A stretch of DNA of 29,870 nt from IMG/VR virus record IMGVR_UViG_2703718835_000002, positions 1 to 29,870 of that record. One strand, 5' to 3'. The position numbers and the translations under genes were made by a program. Source of the stretch: a virus. Taxonomy: Duplodnaviria > Heunggongvirae > Uroviricota > Caudoviricetes. This document shows positions 1 through 29,870 of this stretch, one piece after another; position 1 is the first letter of the stretch; each line of letters opens with the position of its first letter. The notes beneath the pieces are model-generated. The model saw nothing but the letters and a program-made list of their open reading frames with translations, was not told the DNA's origin and made no database searches.

Positions 1-3
1 TGA

Positions 4-483
4 CCATTTTCAAAGGTTGGTTTAGGGGATATCAAAACCAAACTAACCGCGGCTATGCAAAAGGCAGCTAATGGAGGTGACATTCAGGACGTGGTGGCTT
101 TCAGGAAATCTCTACAGTTAGGAGCAGCAGCATTAAGAAACGTAGGGATGGGAGGCCCGTCAAATCTGGTTGATATGGACAGTATCCGGGGGTTAATGTC
201 CGGGAACGGCTATATCCAGATTCCATGTATTGCGACTACCGGCAATAACCTGAAACTTTATCTGCAATGGGGATATACCTTAACACCGCCGAATTCAAAT
301 AATACCTATAACGTCAACGTGGCGTTTCCCAACACCATTTTATTCGCGGTGGGTAATCGCTGCGCGAATGGTTCAAATGATTCAATGAACGTTAACGCCG
401 TTGGGACTCAGGGTCTGCAAATTCAGAATTGGGCACCTGGTGGCTCATGGGAAGCTTGTGCATGGATTGCTATCGGATACTAA
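4..483 (+). CDS. Promoterless alternative tail-fibre C-terminal (variable) cassette; the ATG at 55 is probably internal
   Basis: Frame 1 is open from nt 4 (TGA at 1-3) to TAA 481-483. Translation has receptor-binding-tip features shared with the H C-terminus (GY..P...LQW). Lies antiparallel to H beyond two convergent tfa genes. Confidence 0.55.
   Translation, partial: PFSKVGLGDIKTKLTAAMQKAANGGDIQDVVAFRKSLQLGAAALRNVGMGGPSNLVDMDSIRGLMSGNGYIQIPCIATTGNNLKLYLQWGYTLTPPNSNNTYNVNVAFPNTILFAVGNRCANGSNDSMNVNAVGTQGLQIQNWAPGGSWEACAWIAIGY
5..30. other. Degenerate cix/gix/hix-like 26-bp crossover site, partner of the site in H (core TT)
   Basis: CATTTTCAAAGG-TT-GGTTTAGGGGAT. The TT core is inverted relative to the AA core at 1667-1668 and sits in the same codon phase as in H; half-sites only partly match. 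Confidence 0.35.
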
Positions 484-493
484 GGGGCGATAA

Positions 494-901
494 ATGAACA
501 CTGTTATTTACTGGTTTTCTAACGGGTTATTTTATCCAGACAATGAGAATTATACTCATATCCCGAATGACGCAATAAAAGTAGAGGCAAAAGAATTTGC
601 CAAGGCTATGAATCGAAAGCCCGGTGAATCTTTTTCTGTTGATGAAAACGGGGTGGTTATTATCATGTCCGCGCCGCCAGTTTCTCAGGAACAATTAATT
701 GCGCAGGCTGAATATGAACGCTCCGTATTAAGGGCGAGGGCCGATTCTGAAATTTCTTGGAGGCAGGGTGCAGTCGATGAGGGAATGGCGACGAAAGAAG
801 AAACCGCCGCGTTGTCTGAATGGAAGAAATACCGGGTGCTGTTGATGCGAGTCGATACCACAACAGCGCCCAACATTAGCTGGCCTGTTAAGCCGGAATA
901 G
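494..901 (+). CDS. Tail fibre assembly chaperone (Tfa), alternative copy
   Basis: 135-aa ORF with SD AAGGGG before ATG 494. C-terminal ..WKKYRVLLMRVDTTTAPNISWPVKPE is a typical Tfa C-terminus. Convergent with, and overlapping by 14 nt, the second tfa. Confidence 0.8.
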   Translation: MNTVIYWFSNGLFYPDNENYTHIPNDAIKVEAKEFAKAMNRKPGESFSVDENGVVIIMSAPPVSQEQLIAQAEYERSVLRARADSEISWRQGAVDEGMATKEETAALSEWKKYRVLLMRVDTTTAPNISWPVKPE

Positions 902-1319
902 CGGGCCAGTTTATATCCGGCGCGGTGGAGGTGTCTGTCGCTTCCACCGCCTCAATATAATCCAGCGTCAGATTTAAATTAATCGTCTCGTCGGGTGTAA
1001 GTTTTCTTCCCGCCCGAAGTTTCAACTGTATAACGCTAATTGACTGCATAGCATCGTCTATGCGGCGCTGTTTTTGCTGTTCTGCCTGACTAATTAATTC
1101 CGCTTTCGAGGGTTTTGGTATGTCAGCCCAGGCAGGTAAACCATCAGGCCCGGCGATGCGTATTTTTCCTGCCGGGGGTAGTTCGCTAAAAAATTCGCTG
1201 AACACTTCCACAGACATTAAAACCGCATCGTCCGGCCAGGTGCCAGTCGCTTTAAAAATCTCAATGTCATTTTGCGGGTACGCGCCATTAGTTTTCGCTG
1301 AATAATAAAATCCGCTCAT
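888..1319 (-). CDS. Tail fibre assembly chaperone (Tfa, P2 gpG-like)
   Basis: 143-aa ORF whose start overlaps the H stop. C-terminal ..DTSTAPDINWPAIPA is Tfa-like. Confidence 0.8.
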   Translation of the reverse strand: MSGFYYSAKTNGAYPQNDIEIFKATGTWPDDAVLMSVEVFSEFFSELPPAGKIRIAGPDGLPAWADIPKPSKAELISQAEQQKQRRIDDAMQSISVIQLKLRAGRKLTPDETINLNLTLDYIEAVEATDTSTAPDINWPAIPA

Positions 1320-2494
1320 CGTCCAACCCCTAAAATTCGTGCAGCGGCAGAAATCTGCCCCCAGTTATGCAGCTCTACCGCTGCGTTTGAAAATGCCCCG
1401 GCCACAACGTTTCCGGCTGTAGTATTCGTGGTAACAGCAACCGGTACCGCAATCGCAAACAAACAGACAGAAAATGGATATGTCCAGTAACCCACACCGG
1501 TTGAACTTGCGGGCACTTTTGCCGGGGTTTCAAGCCACTGCAATTTAAATCCGTTCGGCAACTTCAGATAACCGGCGGAAGCATTTCCCACATATTCGAA
1601 TGCTGACATGTCAGGGATTTGACCCGCGCCGGTTCCTACTGCCCGCTTCGCCGCTTCTTTCAAACCAAGGTATTCGAGAAGAGCCGCGACAGATTTTCCT
1701 GATAGTGCAGTTAAGGTATTGTCTAGAGGCTGTTTCCCTGCGAGGGCGTTCGTCATGGTAGTGGCAAAGTTAGGATCGTTGCCCAGTGCTTCCGCCAGTT
1801 CATTCAGAGTATCCAGCGCTCCTGGTGAGGAATCAACAAGCGCGGCAATTGCCGCCTGCACAAAGGCCGTATTGGCAAGTTGCGTGGAATTATTGCCTGC
1901 CGCTGCCGTTGGTGCTTTTGGCGTACCAGTGAATGTCGGACTGGCTTTTGGTGCATACTGCGTATGAGGATCTGCAGCTGCAAGGTGTCTAGCCATCAGG
2001 TCATCCACATACACCTTTAGTTCCAGCACCTTGTCATCAACATATTTACGGGTCGCCAGCACCACTGCCGGATCAATTTTCAGGGTGATGTTATCTGTGC
2101 TGCTGGTAATCAACACCATGCGCACGGTCTGCGTGCGCCCGCTCCCCTCCGCCAGCTGCGGTTTGTAGCTCTCCGGGCAGTTGCCCACAGCAATCAGTGC
2201 TCCAGTCTCATCAAACAGACCTACCTCACGAATCCACCAACCTCCCTCCGTTTCGGGGATCACCTGCTCAGCAATAATCTGGCTGCTGTTCTGCGGATCG
2301 ATATACAGCATATTCAGCGCGGCGCGGTGTTTTTCAGCAACTAACGCGGTCTGTTGCGCGCTTGGCGTTGGTAATACGCCACCACCGTCGCCCACCGCCA
2401 TCTGGGTAATTTTCAACGGAATGCCGAGCGCGGCGGCGCTTGCCAGTTTCGCCGCCCCGATTTCCGTCAGCAGGGTGTAAAATTTTGCGCTCAT
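1316..2494 (-). CDS. H: Tail fibre protein H (constant N-terminal part plus one variable C-terminal domain)
   Basis: N-terminus MSAKFYTLLTEIGAAKLA...MAVGDGGG...NCPESYKPQLAEGSGR matches the conserved P2 gpH N-terminal region as I recall it; synteny I-H-tfa. Confidence 0.9.
   Translation of the reverse strand: MSAKFYTLLTEIGAAKLASAAALGIPLKITQMAVGDGGGVLPTPSAQQTALVAEKHRAALNMLYIDPQNSSQIIAEQVIPETEGGWWIREVGLFDETGALIAVGNCPESYKPQLAEGSGRTQTVRMVLITSSTDNITLKIDPAVVLATRKYVDDKVLELKVYVDDLMARHLAAADPHTQYAPKASPTFTGTPKAPTAAAGNNSTQLANTAFVQAAIAALVDSSPGALDTLNELAEALGNDPNFATTMTNALAGKQPLDNTLTALSGKSVAALLEYLGLKEAAKRAVGTGAGQIPDMSAFEYVGNASAGYLKLPNGFKLQWLETPAKVPASSTGVGYWTYPFSVCLFAIAVPVAVTTNTTAGNVVAGAFSNAAVELHNWGQISAAARILGVGR
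1655..1680. other. cix/gix/hix-like 26-bp DNA-invertase crossover site inside H
   Basis: TTCTTTCAAACC-AA-GGTATTCGAGAA: two 12-bp half-sites of the ..AAACC type around a 2-bp core. Located at the constant/variable junction of H (encodes LEYLGLKE). Confidence 0.5.
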
Positions 2495-4963: not shown

Positions 4964-4990
4964 TTGTGTGGTAAATGACACAAATACAAT
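4964..4990 (+). promoter_or_regulatory. Candidate sigma70 promoter for the moron ORF (TTGTGT-N15-TACAAT)
   Basis: -10 TACAAT at 4985-4990, -35-like TTGTGT at 4964-4969; SD AAAGG then ATG at 5014. Confidence 0.35.
4965..4982. promoter_or_regulatory. TGT-N12-ACA dyad (P2 Ogr / 186 B late-activator type) upstream of V
   Basis: TGTgtggtaaatgacACA, centred about 55 nt upstream of the V start codon, the same geometry as the dyad upstream of P. Confidence 0.4.
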
Positions 4991-5013
4991 TCCAATCGAA
5001 GAAAGGTAAAAGA

Positions 5014-5544
5014 ATGAGCCATCCAATTGATTATTACGCTATAGAAGAACACGCAAGAATAATTGAGCAATTATGCTGTTCATCTGAATTTTATTTACAG
5101 CGTATATATTCCACACAGAAAGTATATGATGGTTCTATAGTAACTGAATTTGAAATAGAGGAGTTATCGTACAACGGATGGTTGGAATATACCATTAGCA
5201 ACAATCTTATTAGCCTTTGTACAAAACTACGAATTCTCCAAGACACTAGTGAACATGAGTGGAACCCAGATTACTCACCTGAGAAAGAAGCATTTGAAGA
5301 ACATGAAAATATACTTTTTGTTATAGATGGTCATGTTAAAGGTTCTATACGCGAATGCTGCAACAAAATTATTCACGCATTAAGTTTTGAGTTAACAAAA
5401 AAGACCGGCAAAAATGGAATAAAATATTGGGATGGTTCTATTATTGCTTCTGGGGTTCAAAACAAAAAAAACTGGAAAATTAAAATAGACCTTTTCCCTT
5501 TTTGCCAAAGCATAAAAAGTTATTTAAGTTTATTAAGTGCGTAA
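5014..5544 (+). CDS. Hypothetical protein, AT-rich moron between V and S (176 aa from ATG 5014; ORF track starts at 4975)
   Basis: Opposite strand to the late genes, strongly AT-rich versus flanks, SD AAAGG 7 nt before ATG 5014. No motif recognised. Confidence 0.6.
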   Translation: MSHPIDYYAIEEHARIIEQLCCSSEFYLQRIYSTQKVYDGSIVTEFEIEELSYNGWLEYTISNNLISLCTKLRILQDTSEHEWNPDYSPEKEAFEEHENILFVIDGHVKGSIRECCNKIIHALSFELTKKTGKNGIKYWDGSIIASGVQNKKNWKIKIDLFPFCQSIKSYLSLLSA

Positions 5545-22535: not shown

Positions 22536-24056
22536 GTGATTCAAAAATTAGATATTCAATCTGATGCGGTTGCAAAGTTAAGAATGGATGCTATTCGTTC
22601 AGAAATCCAAGGTTATTCCCCTGATTTATTTATCGAATTCTGTATGCAATATAACTTACAAAAATTTGAAGATAATATCCACATGTTACGACACATGCCT
22701 TGGATTGTTAATTTATGTCTAAAGTGGTCTGCGTCAGTAACTGGCAAGAATAAAAAATTCAAAATCCTCGATAAAAATCAATCAATAAAACTCTTCCAAA
22801 AAACTTATGAAACCTTGAACATTATTCCTATCGGTCTTGAGAGGAAGAATGGCATGCATTTCTTCATTAGAAATAATCTATACCAACAAGGAATCTACCA
22901 GAAAATTGACGCTCTAAACACAATTAGCAGACAAGTCTTTCTATTTTCAGAACTTGAAAAAAACCATAAAATAAAGACAAGTTTTTTTACTATCACGAAT
23001 GTATCTATCGAAGACTTTCTTAAGCTATCTTACATATTAATAACTCACATAACAGAAGAGCATCCCGTGAGAAAAATGAATGTAGATACATTTACTATAT
23101 TATTTGACATCATTCCTAGAAATACCATTGAGAAATTTCTTGATGCAATATCAATAAATTACAATGAACTATCTACATTTTGCAAATCTAAAACCTATGA
23201 TAAACCTTTGCTTGAATACTACTCATCATCACCTTTTCTTGAAAAACCATTAATAAAAAAAGGTTCAGAGTATTTTCAGATACACACACAACTGACTTCA
23301 ACAAGCATACAGACGTTCATATATGATCTTTTAAGAAGAACTGATGCCGAGAAGTTCATGGATAGCTTTGGAAATGTATTTGAAAATGCACTGGAATTAA
23401 TACTAAAAGAAAGCGAAATTGATTTTCATAACGAAAAATACCTTAAAGAACGACTACCTAAAGATAATAAAGTAGTTGATTATTTCATTCCACATACTGA
23501 GGCAAATATTTTCATTGATGCTAAAGGCGTTGAGATACACCAAAAAGGCATGGTAACATTACGCCCTGAGGATATTGCAGGAAAAATAAAGAAATCGGTA
23601 TTAAAAGCAATCGAACAATCTCACGAAGTTAATCGAGAAATATACTCTAATGAGCGAATAATAGCTCCATTCAGGGCTAACTCATATATCATTTGCATTA
23701 CATATAAAAACCTTTTCTTAGGCAATGGTAGTATCCTAGCTAATACTTATGCTAAAGATGAGATGAATAAGATATATGACAAGTTTAAACATAACTATCA
23801 TATCCCTACAGAGAATATTTTTTGTCTATCATTTGAAGAGTTTGAATATCTCATTGCATCATGCAAAAGGTTTAAAATTCCGCCTCATGAAGTCTTGCAA
23901 TCTGCAGTTGAAAAGAACAAAAAACCATCAAGTGCTGCTTTCCTATTTTCCCACCATATAGAAGACTATTTTGATAGAGTAGTCAATTCAGTCATAGTCA
24001 ATGAGGCAGGCATTAAAATGGTAGATTCTATTATCAATAAATTAAAGCCTGAATAA
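22536..24056 (+). CDS. Hypothetical 506-aa AT-rich cargo protein with a PD-(D/E)xK-like motif; candidate lysogen-expressed defence/exclusion gene
   Basis: GTG start 12 nt after the int stop with GGAG SD; composition sharply AT-rich versus the prophage backbone; residues about 283-330 read E..E...hhD(315)-x12-D(328)xK(330). Confidence 0.7.
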   Translation: MIQKLDIQSDAVAKLRMDAIRSEIQGYSPDLFIEFCMQYNLQKFEDNIHMLRHMPWIVNLCLKWSASVTGKNKKFKILDKNQSIKLFQKTYETLNIIPIGLERKNGMHFFIRNNLYQQGIYQKIDALNTISRQVFLFSELEKNHKIKTSFFTITNVSIEDFLKLSYILITHITEEHPVRKMNVDTFTILFDIIPRNTIEKFLDAISINYNELSTFCKSKTYDKPLLEYYSSSPFLEKPLIKKGSEYFQIHTQLTSTSIQTFIYDLLRRTDAEKFMDSFGNVFENALELILKESEIDFHNEKYLKERLPKDNKVVDYFIPHTEANIFIDAKGVEIHQKGMVTLRPEDIAGKIKKSVLKAIEQSHEVNREIYSNERIIAPFRANSYIICITYKNLFLGNGSILANTYAKDEMNKIYDKFKHNYHIPTENIFCLSFEEFEYLIASCKRFKIPPHEVLQSAVEKNKKPSSAAFLFSHHIEDYFDRVVNSVIVNEAGIKMVDSIINKLKPE

Positions 24057-29339: not shown

Positions 29340-29530
29340 TGTTTTACTTTTACAGCATTCGTCCCCCCATTGTTGGGCAAATATAGATTGGGCCAGAGCA
29401 CGAAAGTTAATACCACGTTCGCACAGCTCCTCCAACAGCACGACAAGATGCCACATACTGCGCCCCAGTCGGTTCAGTTTACAGACTAGCAGTGCGTTCC
29501 CTGCCGATGATGTCCTGACCAGTTTTTTCA
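29340..29530 (-). pseudogene. pinH: Serine recombinase (DNA invertase/resolvase) fragment, frameshifted (pinH-like)
   Basis: Minus-strand translation ..[37 protein letters not shown].. matches the Gin/Hin/Pin core (..WKLDRLGRS...L...L.ERGI.F..L..SI) but is truncated, lacks the N-terminal catalytic Ser region and needs a frameshift. Confidence 0.55.
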
Positions 29531-29870
29531 GTCCGGACCTCCTGCCACGGTTTTACGTTGAAGTGGTAACCCTGAGCACGCAGTTCTTCAGTCAGGCGTG
29601 GTGCACCGTAACGCTGTTATTGCTGGGTAAGATCAAAAAACTTTCAGGCAGCTAAGGAAAGTTGAACCAGACATTAGATGAAATATTTCAACCAATTACA
29701 GCACCAATTCAGTCACTGCCAGCCCACCAAATAAATCAAGGGGTTACATGAAAACGTAGCCCCTTTTTCTTTGGTAGTGACACTAAAATGGATGTAGTGT
29801 GAAGAATAATCCCGTTTACTCAATCAATAATACATATTGTTTCAATCTACGTTAGGCTTTGTTGAATAAA

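Follow-up and report, generated by a model that had tools for sequence, protein, structure and literature searches.

A probable Din-family invertible segment at the end of the tail-fiber gene H of a P2-like Escherichia coli prophage

The window analyzed here, a stretch of 29,870 nucleotides (nt), is the entire contig LONV01000061.1 of assembly GCA_001576295.1, and its positions 17 to 1668 are in all likelihood an invertible tail-fiber segment of the Din family (Gin/Cin/Pin/Hin type), located where gene H of a P2-like E. coli prophage ends. This is a further example of a known mechanism, in which a flip-flop segment swaps the tail-fiber tip, here in a P2-like E. coli prophage; host-range switching by DNA inversion has been familiar from the time of Mu G and P1 C. 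As the segment lies now, the late operon would express the constant part of H together with cassette A, followed by tfaA. A small serine invertase would cleave the 2-bp cores (positions 17 to 18 and 1667 to 1668) and rotate the segment, so that cassette B, with tfaB behind it, would be joined in frame to the constant part of H, and the flipped fiber would carry a different receptor-binding tip and thereby confer a different host range. Direct support comes from the architecture, a canonical right site, the in-frame fusion, a flipped and fused copy in another genome, and intact silent genes. The locus adds one case of phages hedging their bets on host range through DNA inversion and opens no new question.

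Pfam searches with the contig genes (GPO, cap_P2, GpR, tail_S, base_V, GPW_gp25, Baseplate_J, and Tail_P2_I) identified a P2-like backbone (Peduoviridae), with the P2-like late gene order ...S, V, W, J, I, H, tfa and with capsid, terminase, repressor, and integrase genes. The prophage is integrated beside ssrA/ypjA in E. coli, the CI and integrase genes adjoining ypjA. The features of the segment and its surroundings are as follows.

1 to 16, no strand: outer flank, starting at the contig end (nt 1), plus the outer half-site (5 to 16) of the crossover site nearer the invertase
5 to 30, no strand: left (invertase-proximal) crossover site, 26 bp, CATTTTCAAAGG-TT-GGTTTAGGGGAT, core TT at 17 to 18; weight-matrix rank 3 of 29,845 (11.5 bits)
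19 to 483, plus strand: cassette B, the alternative, silent fiber C terminus (Gp53-like_C, PF21882, E = 1.7e-7), within an open frame at 4 to 483
494 to 901, plus strand: tfaB, tail-fiber assembly chaperone pairing with cassette B (Caudo_TAP, E = 2.9e-30; phrog_188)
888 to 1319, minus strand: tfaA, chaperone pairing with the expressed cassette A (Caudo_TAP, E = 2.3e-28; from the list of open reading frames [ORFs])
1316 to 2494, minus strand: H, the whole tail-fiber gene (Phage_tail_fib at residues 1 to 150, Pfam)
1316 to 1666, minus strand: cassette A, the variable C terminus of H expressed now (residues about 277 to 392; tail-fiber families phrog_1396 and phrog_2557)
1655 to 1680, no strand: right crossover site, TTCTTTCAAACC-AA-GGTATTCGAGAA, core AA at 1667 to 1668, at the constant/variable junction of H
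1681 to 2494, minus strand: constant N-terminal part of H (Phage_tail_fib, PF12571, E = 4.9e-64)

The 1.65-kb segment occupies the 3′ end of H and contains two antiparallel pairs of a cassette and a chaperone gene. There is a 4-nt overlap between the start of tfaA and the H stop codon, and the 3′ ends of tfaB and tfaA overlap by 14 nt (888 to 901). This overlap, the cassette frame, and both sites had been placed at the same coordinates by the first-pass annotation, and a check of the sequence and its ORFs left all of them unchanged. Identity is only 24% between the two cassettes and 29% between the two chaperones. The frame of cassette B opens directly after a TGA at 1 to 3, and its first ATG (position 55) has no Shine-Dalgarno sequence; a scan for promoters and terminators returned counts at the chance level and is thus uninformative on a promoter of the cassette's own. 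With a constant N terminus, two cassettes with their chaperones, and an in-frame fusion in either orientation, the locus has the makeup of a tail-fiber switch. The gene calls of the contig record omit H and enter cassette B as a separate ORF of 111 amino acids (aa), as annotation pipelines miss or mis-call such genes, and an exact-match look-up of the H protein gave no match.

The crossover sites

The right site is the only match to the Din consensus in the 29.9 kb (≤3 mismatches; 0.00 expected by chance) and, at 26.4 bits, the top score in the window for a weight matrix derived from published hix, gix, cix, pix, mix, and bix half-sites. Its earlier description as cix/gix-like was borne out by alignment with known sites, in which 22 of its 26 bases were identical to cixR of the P1 record, including the unusual GGTATT half. 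In the left site, which had been proposed as a degenerate partner with an inverted TT core, the inner half (ATCCCCTAAACC) scored well with the same matrix (10.5 bits), whereas the outer half (5 to 16) was poor (1.0 bit against Gin-type half-sites). The two sites have only about 12 of 26 bases in common when aligned as a plain inverted repeat, and a repeat search of the whole window did not report them as an inverted pair. Such a search is no valid test of so asymmetric a pair, and the case for the left site is therefore a comparative one. In comparisons with 10 other loci that have the segment, homology begins at window positions 8 to 17 and ends at 1671 to 1691 (1735 in locus L022), that is, at the proposed sites. 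The cores are inverted with respect to each other (TT and AA), and both sites fall in the same codon phase. The window thus contains two inverted 26-bp sites, each composed of two 12-bp half-sites and a 2-bp core, as in Din-family segments. A shufflon of the Rci type was rejected, since the sites number only two, each 26 bp long around a 2-bp core, and the enzymes encoded nearby are serine recombinases.

Nine prophages have the first 16 nt of the window unchanged as their invertase-proximal flank, which suggests that the weak outer half is the normal site of this lineage and by itself no sign of decay. Likewise, a ...AAAGG-TT outer half adjoins PinL-like invertases in three other backbones (L018, L023, and L024). 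Known sites offer parallels: the outer half of the cin-proximal site cixL of P1 starts with CA, as does the left outer half here, and the natural hixR and nix sites (PMC3241671) resemble the weak outer half-site of the window. The Salmonella Hin site hixR combines one canonical half with an outer half ending in ...TTTTGG by the core, and this outer half scored 0.6 bits, compared with 1.0 bit in the window. Hin flips a promoter, whereas fiber cassettes would be flipped here, and the likeness is one of site asymmetry only. The first-pass annotation had concluded from the poor left site that the segment may be frozen; the poor outer half stands, but a half-site that is standard in its lineage and scores like hixR lends little weight to the frozen reading.

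The contig end lies just 4 nt past the left site, so a mis-join or trimming there might have created a sequence at 5 to 30 that is not the true neighbor of cassette B. We regard such an assembly artifact as a negligible prospect, given that cassette B is followed by the identical inner half, core, and ...AAAGG outer bases in nine independent assemblies and that the terminal 16 nt are a real flank in nine other genomes.

The left flank and the invertase

Since the contig stops outside the left site, the invertase gene and its enhancer are out of view; draft assemblies can break at or near such loci, thereby hiding the invertase. Nine prophages that share the backbone (L008 to L016) have the flank ...AA-CCTTTGAAAATG-GTCA, with which positions 1 to 16 agree in 16 of 16 bases. 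The gpI of these prophages is identical to that of the window, as is their H from nt 1894 in the upstream direction. Past the flank, these prophages encode orf140 (140 aa), which matched no Pfam, PHROG, or NCBIfam family, then a 186-aa Resolvase+HTH_7 protein, and then the sheath protein. The 186-aa protein has the catalytic Ser9 and is 49% identical to Gin over its full length (49 to 52% to Gin, Cin, and Pin). Its closest named relatives, at about 72% identity, are phi80 PinL and related lambdoid invertases (mEp237 and HK225). The expectation of a Gin/Cin/Pin-type enzyme was thus right as to the family, and the subtype is refined to PinL-like. In Din-family systems, a Fis-dependent recombinational enhancer lies in the 5′ part of the invertase gene; in the relatives, this part of the gene can be aligned with those of gin, cin, and pin, albeit with much more divergence. 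The neighborhood of phi80 pinL, examined for a comparable proximal site, contained only pseudogene fragments.

In E. coli WL7562, a gene for a 188-aa Gin-like recombinase (75% identical to Gin) lies directly past the segment and before the sheath gene. The same segment with an adjoining serine recombinase gene was also found in L018, L023, and L024, and serine invertase genes adjoin it in at least five backbones. The arrangement in WL7562 and the 16-nt flank common to nine invertase-carrying prophages make it very plausible that an invertase gene is located just upstream of nt 1. By analogy with these prophages, a PinL-like 186-aa invertase gene would lie a few hundred bases past the contig end, after a 140-aa ORF, and the adjoining contig would be expected to end in ...GGTCACCTATATAGGTGACC. 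The same two lines of evidence, together with the flipped and fused copy in WL7562 described below, uphold the assignment of the locus to the Mu G/P1 C/e14 P arrangement.

Both e14 P/Pin (NC_000913) and P1 C/Cin (NC_005856) have the layout found here, which runs from the fiber constant part through a 26-bp site, a cassette with tfa, an antiparallel tfa′ with cassette′, and a second 26-bp site to the invertase gene. The present system differs from them in its P2-like backbone, in the length of the segment (1.65 kb versus 4.2 kb in P1), in the invertase-proximal outer half (...AAAGG versus ...AAACC or AAACG), and in the low identity of its lineage's invertase to Gin, Cin, and Pin. Closer in phage type and in position at the end of H are the segments of P2-like prophages in enteropathogenic strain EPEC E2348/69, whose inversion was shown by sequencing and PCR (Goldberg et al. 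2014, PMC4272514). The cassettes in that strain differ from those described here, and it also has a three-site, four-variant version, compared with two sites here (PMC4272514).

Flipped copies and the silent genes

Inversion of the segment in silico produced ...LEYLGLGDIKTK... and an in-frame ORF of 430 aa (H′), as had been anticipated from the equal codon phase; the predicted inverted junctions are TGACCATTTTCAAAGGTTGGTTTGAAAGAAGCGG and ATATCCCCTAAACCAAGGTATTCGAGAAGAGCC. In WL7562, window positions 17 to 1671 were matched at 99% identity in the opposite orientation, and H is annotated there as reading across the site into cassette B in an in-frame fusion. In addition, related segments (85 to 91% identical) were found in both orientations within the L008-to-L016 backbone. 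Both orientations thus occur in nature, in other genomes, namely WL7562 and those with the related segments.

These copies also bear on the explanation that ordinary recombination brought two fiber-tip modules together tail to tail by chance and that the 26-bp “sites” are a conserved LEYLGL coding motif. The junction motif is indeed widely conserved among the H genes of P2-like phages: five viral contigs, from distant P2-like phages and otherwise about 70% identical, contain the 31-nt junction on the H side exactly, which indicates that the motif is conserved and makes these matches uninformative on orientation. The H constant part is itself a mosaic at 1734 to 1893. However, the inner half, the inverted core, and the codon phase are all retained at the left site, although it is not part of any H gene; the WL7562 copy is flipped exactly at the cores; and serine invertase genes stand beside the segment in several backbones. 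We therefore consider chance juxtaposition highly improbable.

Cassette B and tfaB had no amino acid changes across the 10 other loci, and cassette B contained no stop codons, so that a search for inactivating mutations in the alternative cassette came up empty. The substitutions among these loci nearly all changed amino acids and lay at the tip of cassette A; residues 354 to 359 and 370 of H are suspected to form a receptor-contact loop. The protein database held no flipped twin of the exact combination of backbone and segment, with the best full-length match to the in silico H′ at ≤77% identity; the left-junction pattern had no matches in genome and viral contig collections, and a degenerate pattern covering both orientations had none in metagenome contigs. 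The assembly was contiguous across the right site, suggesting that one orientation was dominant in the sequenced culture.

An invertible architecture could also have become locked in this strain, with the invertase missing or inactive or the left outer half failing in synapsis, and with cassette B and tfaB as silent passengers. In the P2-like loci L017 and L022, and also in L021, no invertase gene was called next to the same segment (in L017 and L022, the outer half-site is followed by a hairpin and then by the sheath gene), which means that loss of the enzyme does happen. The low score of the left outer half, the lack of a flipped twin in the protein, genome, viral, and metagenome searches, and the absence of an assembly break at the right site point in the same direction. 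On the other side stand the flank identical to that of nine invertase-carrying prophages, the ...AAAGG-TT outer half next to PinL-like invertases in three further backbones, and silent genes that are intact and free of amino acid changes at 10 loci. A fossil segment appears unlikely to us on this evidence, and we lean slightly toward a segment that still inverts in the present strain.

The segment in other phage backbones

Copies of the segment with only 1 to 15 differences in 1,652 nt were found in P2-like, Mu-like, and at least two other myovirus backbones, with the homology bounded at the two crossover sites. They adjoin two invertase subfamilies, Gin/Pin-like and PinL-like, that are 49% identical to each other. 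From these comparisons, the 1.65-kb segment may conceivably be a self-contained, portable host-range cassette, although the evidence leaves us a little short of favoring this. If so, whole invertible segments would be exchanged between unrelated phages at Din sites, possibly by the invertases themselves, with one tip under diversifying selection. A single segment that is almost unchanged across unrelated myovirus backbones and two invertase subfamilies may aid host-range engineering.

Outside the segment, a comparison of the H constant part with that of L008 gave 40 of 40 identical positions per 40-nt block from 1894 upward and 29 to 38 of 40 across 1734 to 1893, showing that the H constant part is mosaic between 1734 and 1893.

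Gene order at the left end of the window

The left end of the window encodes a tail-fibre gene (H), its expressed variable C-terminus (cassette A), a silent alternative C-terminus (cassette B) and a chaperone gene paired with each cassette (tfaA and tfaB).

Features at the left end of the window
4-483, +, open frame of cassette B, preceded by TGA at 1-3
5-30, left site, CATTTTCAAAGG-TT-GGTTTAGGGGAT
494-901, +, tfaB, Caudo_TAP (Pfam)
888-1319, -, tfaA, Caudo_TAP (Pfam)
1316-2494, -, H, Phage_tail_fib (Pfam; residues 1-150, E = 4.9e-64)
1655-1680, right site, TTCTTTCAAACC-AA-GGTATTCGAGAA
next after H, -, I, J, W, V, in order from left to right

The 4-483 frame contains a Gp53-like_C domain (Pfam), and its first ATG, at 55, is without a Shine-Dalgarno sequence. 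H shares 4 nt with tfaA, and the gene coordinates bear out the 14-nt overlap between the 3' ends of tfaA and tfaB claimed in the first-pass annotation. Since the cassettes are 24% identical and the chaperones 29%, cassettes A and B appear to be distinct receptor-binding tips served by separate chaperones. The gene calls recorded for the contig (L026) are without the H gene (window 1316-2494, minus strand; L026 8829-10001) and include cassette B as a separate 111-aa ORF, a common kind of annotation error for invertible fibre genes; no record of the exact H product was found.

Inversion in relatives and the sequence beyond the contig end

The segment (window 17-1668) is found flipped in Escherichia coli WL7562 (locus L001), which aligns with the window at 99.0% identity over 17-1671 and nowhere outside. 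There, H as annotated (L001 4953-6467) crosses TTCTCGCATACC-TT-GGTTTAGGGGAT and continues into cassette B; at its far end the segment reads TTCTTTCAAACC-AA-CGTTTAAGAAAA, and beyond it lie a gene for a 188-aa recombinase (184 residues aligned with Gin, E = 4e-92) and then the sheath gene. Inverting the window in silico between the cores gave an in-frame 430-aa H' with ...LEYLGLGDIKTK..., as expected from the predicted fusion of the constant part of H to the alternative cassette. Within the window's own backbone, both orientations are represented among related segments of 85-91% identity (L009, L014, and L015 versus L010 and L016). The arrangement is that of Mu G, P1 C, and e14 P, here in a P2-like prophage; the earlier reading in these terms is upheld. 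The testable defining features lying within the window are all present, and the two that involve enzyme and enhancer fall beyond the contig end. We regard the invertible-segment architecture itself as highly likely.

The window is the whole of contig LONV01000061.1 (29,870 bp; assembly GCA_001576295.1; 100% identity), so nt 1 marks the contig end, with 4 nt of sequence outside the left site. Nine contigs of same-backbone prophages (L008-L016) encode a gpI identical to that of the window. In all nine, the distal site is flanked on its outer side by window 1-16 in exact reverse complement (...AAACC-AA-CCTTTGAAAATG-GTCA-cctatataggtgacc...), followed by a 140-aa ORF, a 186-aa Resolvase+HTH_7 protein, and the sheath gene. 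The 186-aa protein keeps Ser9, can be aligned with Gin from end to end (E = 5e-55, 49% identical), and has the phi80 PinL, mEp237, and HK225 invertases as its closest named relatives (∼72%). From these 16 nt and the shared backbone, we infer that the window's prophage continues likewise with the 140-aa ORF, invertase, and sheath. In a related lysogen, the prophage half absent from this contig has the order invertase, sheath, tube, tape measure, U, D, ogr, ssrA. The contig may have broken here because the invertase-sheath flank is repeated at another place in the genome.

Next beyond window 1-16 (region L008 13436-13476), the relatives carry a perfect 20-nt palindrome, GGTCACCTATATAGGTGACC, with the T-rich outer half-site directly after it; the arrangement looks like a terminator of the 140-aa ORF reading towards the segment. 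This ORF (L008 13474-13896) has no match in Pfam, PHROG, or NCBIfam, and a second, inverted copy lies inside the segment of L013 (L013 11772-12194 and 13705-14127). The "constant" part of H is itself mosaic over its last ∼55 codons (window 1734-1893): the H genes of L008-L016 are identical to that of the window over each 40-nt stretch upward of 1894, their identity decays from 40/40 to 29-38 of 40 across 1734-1893, and identity to segment donors begins only at 1680-1735.

Crossover sites and activity in this strain

The right site, at the constant/variable junction of H, is the sole match in the window to TTCTCNNAAACCWWGGTTTNNGAGAA at ≤3 mismatches (0.00 in shuffled sequence). With a weight matrix built from the hix, gix, cix, pix, mix, and bix half-sites given in PMC3241671 (19 distinct ones), it scored 26.4 bits, the highest among 29,845 window positions, and 22/26 of its bases are identical in P1 cixR (P1 record). 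The left site ranked third with 11.5 bits, divided between a good inner half facing the segment (10.5 bits) and a poor outer half (1.0 bit). A repeat search of the window did not list the pair; because it is unremarkable as a plain inverted repeat and the outer half is poor, the case for the left site is comparative, not statistical.

The first-pass annotation called the left site poorly conserved and the segment perhaps frozen; the former holds against Gin-type half-sites, but three observations argue against reading it as decay. All nine relatives (L008-L016) share the window's outer half-site, and outer halves ending ...AAAGG-TT bound the segment in L018, L023, and L024, where the adjoining invertases share 70-99% identity with that of L008; Pin-like enzymes (e14 and WL7562) have ...AAACG instead. 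The natural hixR outer half, TTTTCCTTTTGG (PMC3241671), scores 0.6 bits, and Dichelobacter nix sites carry CC after the core (PMC3241671). Judged from these comparisons, the weak outer half is a lineage feature and by itself no demonstration of decay. The invertase-proximal outer half varies with subfamily, ...AAAGG-TT in PinL-like loci (L008-L016, L018, L023, and L024) versus ...AAACG-TT in Pin-like ones (L001 and e14, L029), and the same or similar segments are adjoined by two invertase subfamilies, PinL-like and Gin/Pin-like, 49% identical.

The segment may be frozen in this strain: L017 and L022 (P2-like) and L021 carry the same segment with no called invertase gene adjoining (in L017 and L022 there is a hairpin between the outer half-site and the sheath gene), no flipped twin of the window's combination of backbone and segment was found in the sequence collections searched, and the assembly runs unbroken across the right site. 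On balance, we lean slightly towards active inversion in this strain. In P2-like L021 (11427-17021), the segment is followed by genes for U, tape measure, tube, and sheath in reversed orientation, without an invertase gene. The cause may be a large inversion or an assembly artefact, or the gene order may simply differ.

The segment across phage backbones and the rest of the prophage

Near-identical copies with 1-15 nucleotide differences over window 17-1668 occur in P2-like prophages (L017, L021, L022, and WL7562), Mu-like prophages (L018, L023, and L025), and at least two other myovirus backbones (L019/L020; L024). Homology starts at window 8-17 and stops at 1671-1691, except in L022 (to 1735); in L021, one lower-identity alignment continues into the backbone. 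G+C content is 43-50% in the segment versus 55-64% in the baseplate genes. Work on P1, p15B, Mu, and P2 in the early 1990s described fibre-module exchange at these junctions, so this distribution illustrates a known process. Sequencing and PCR have demonstrated that segments of this type invert in P2-like E. coli prophages (PMC4272514), and genome-wide screens detect prophage tail-fibre inversions (PMC5903667). The observation is confirmed, and its interpretation as a further example of an already known arrangement is supported.

Among ten loci, cassette B and tfaB have no amino acid changes and tfaA has one, while cassette A holds nearly all substitutions, most of which change the amino acid (H codons 277, 291, 326, 354-359, 367, 370, and 380-392). 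Codon 356 encodes Thr in the window alone and Pro in 10/10 others. This pattern suggests diversifying selection on one receptor-binding tip, cassette A. Within this cassette (window 1320-1665, H codons 277-392), substitutions are concentrated at codons 326, 354-359, 370, and 380-392, and in WL7562 the patch 1418-1433 has been replaced.

The right third of the window, with P2-type CI, integrase, gapS1, and ypjA genes, is 99.9% identical to E. coli chromosomes. The 506-aa gene directly 3' of the prophage integrase (22536-24056, +), which identical E. coli genomes annotate as "GapS1 family protein", is probably cargo carried by the prophage at its attachment-site end. Between tail genes S and V, a 189-aa ORF (4975-5544, +; 30-33% G+C) runs on the opposite strand; its entire length matches phrog_18838, and it resembles a moron. 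Past ypjA, at the right end of the window, lies a recombinase-family gene fragment (29382-29549) that identical E. coli chromosomes annotate as a partial pseudogene.
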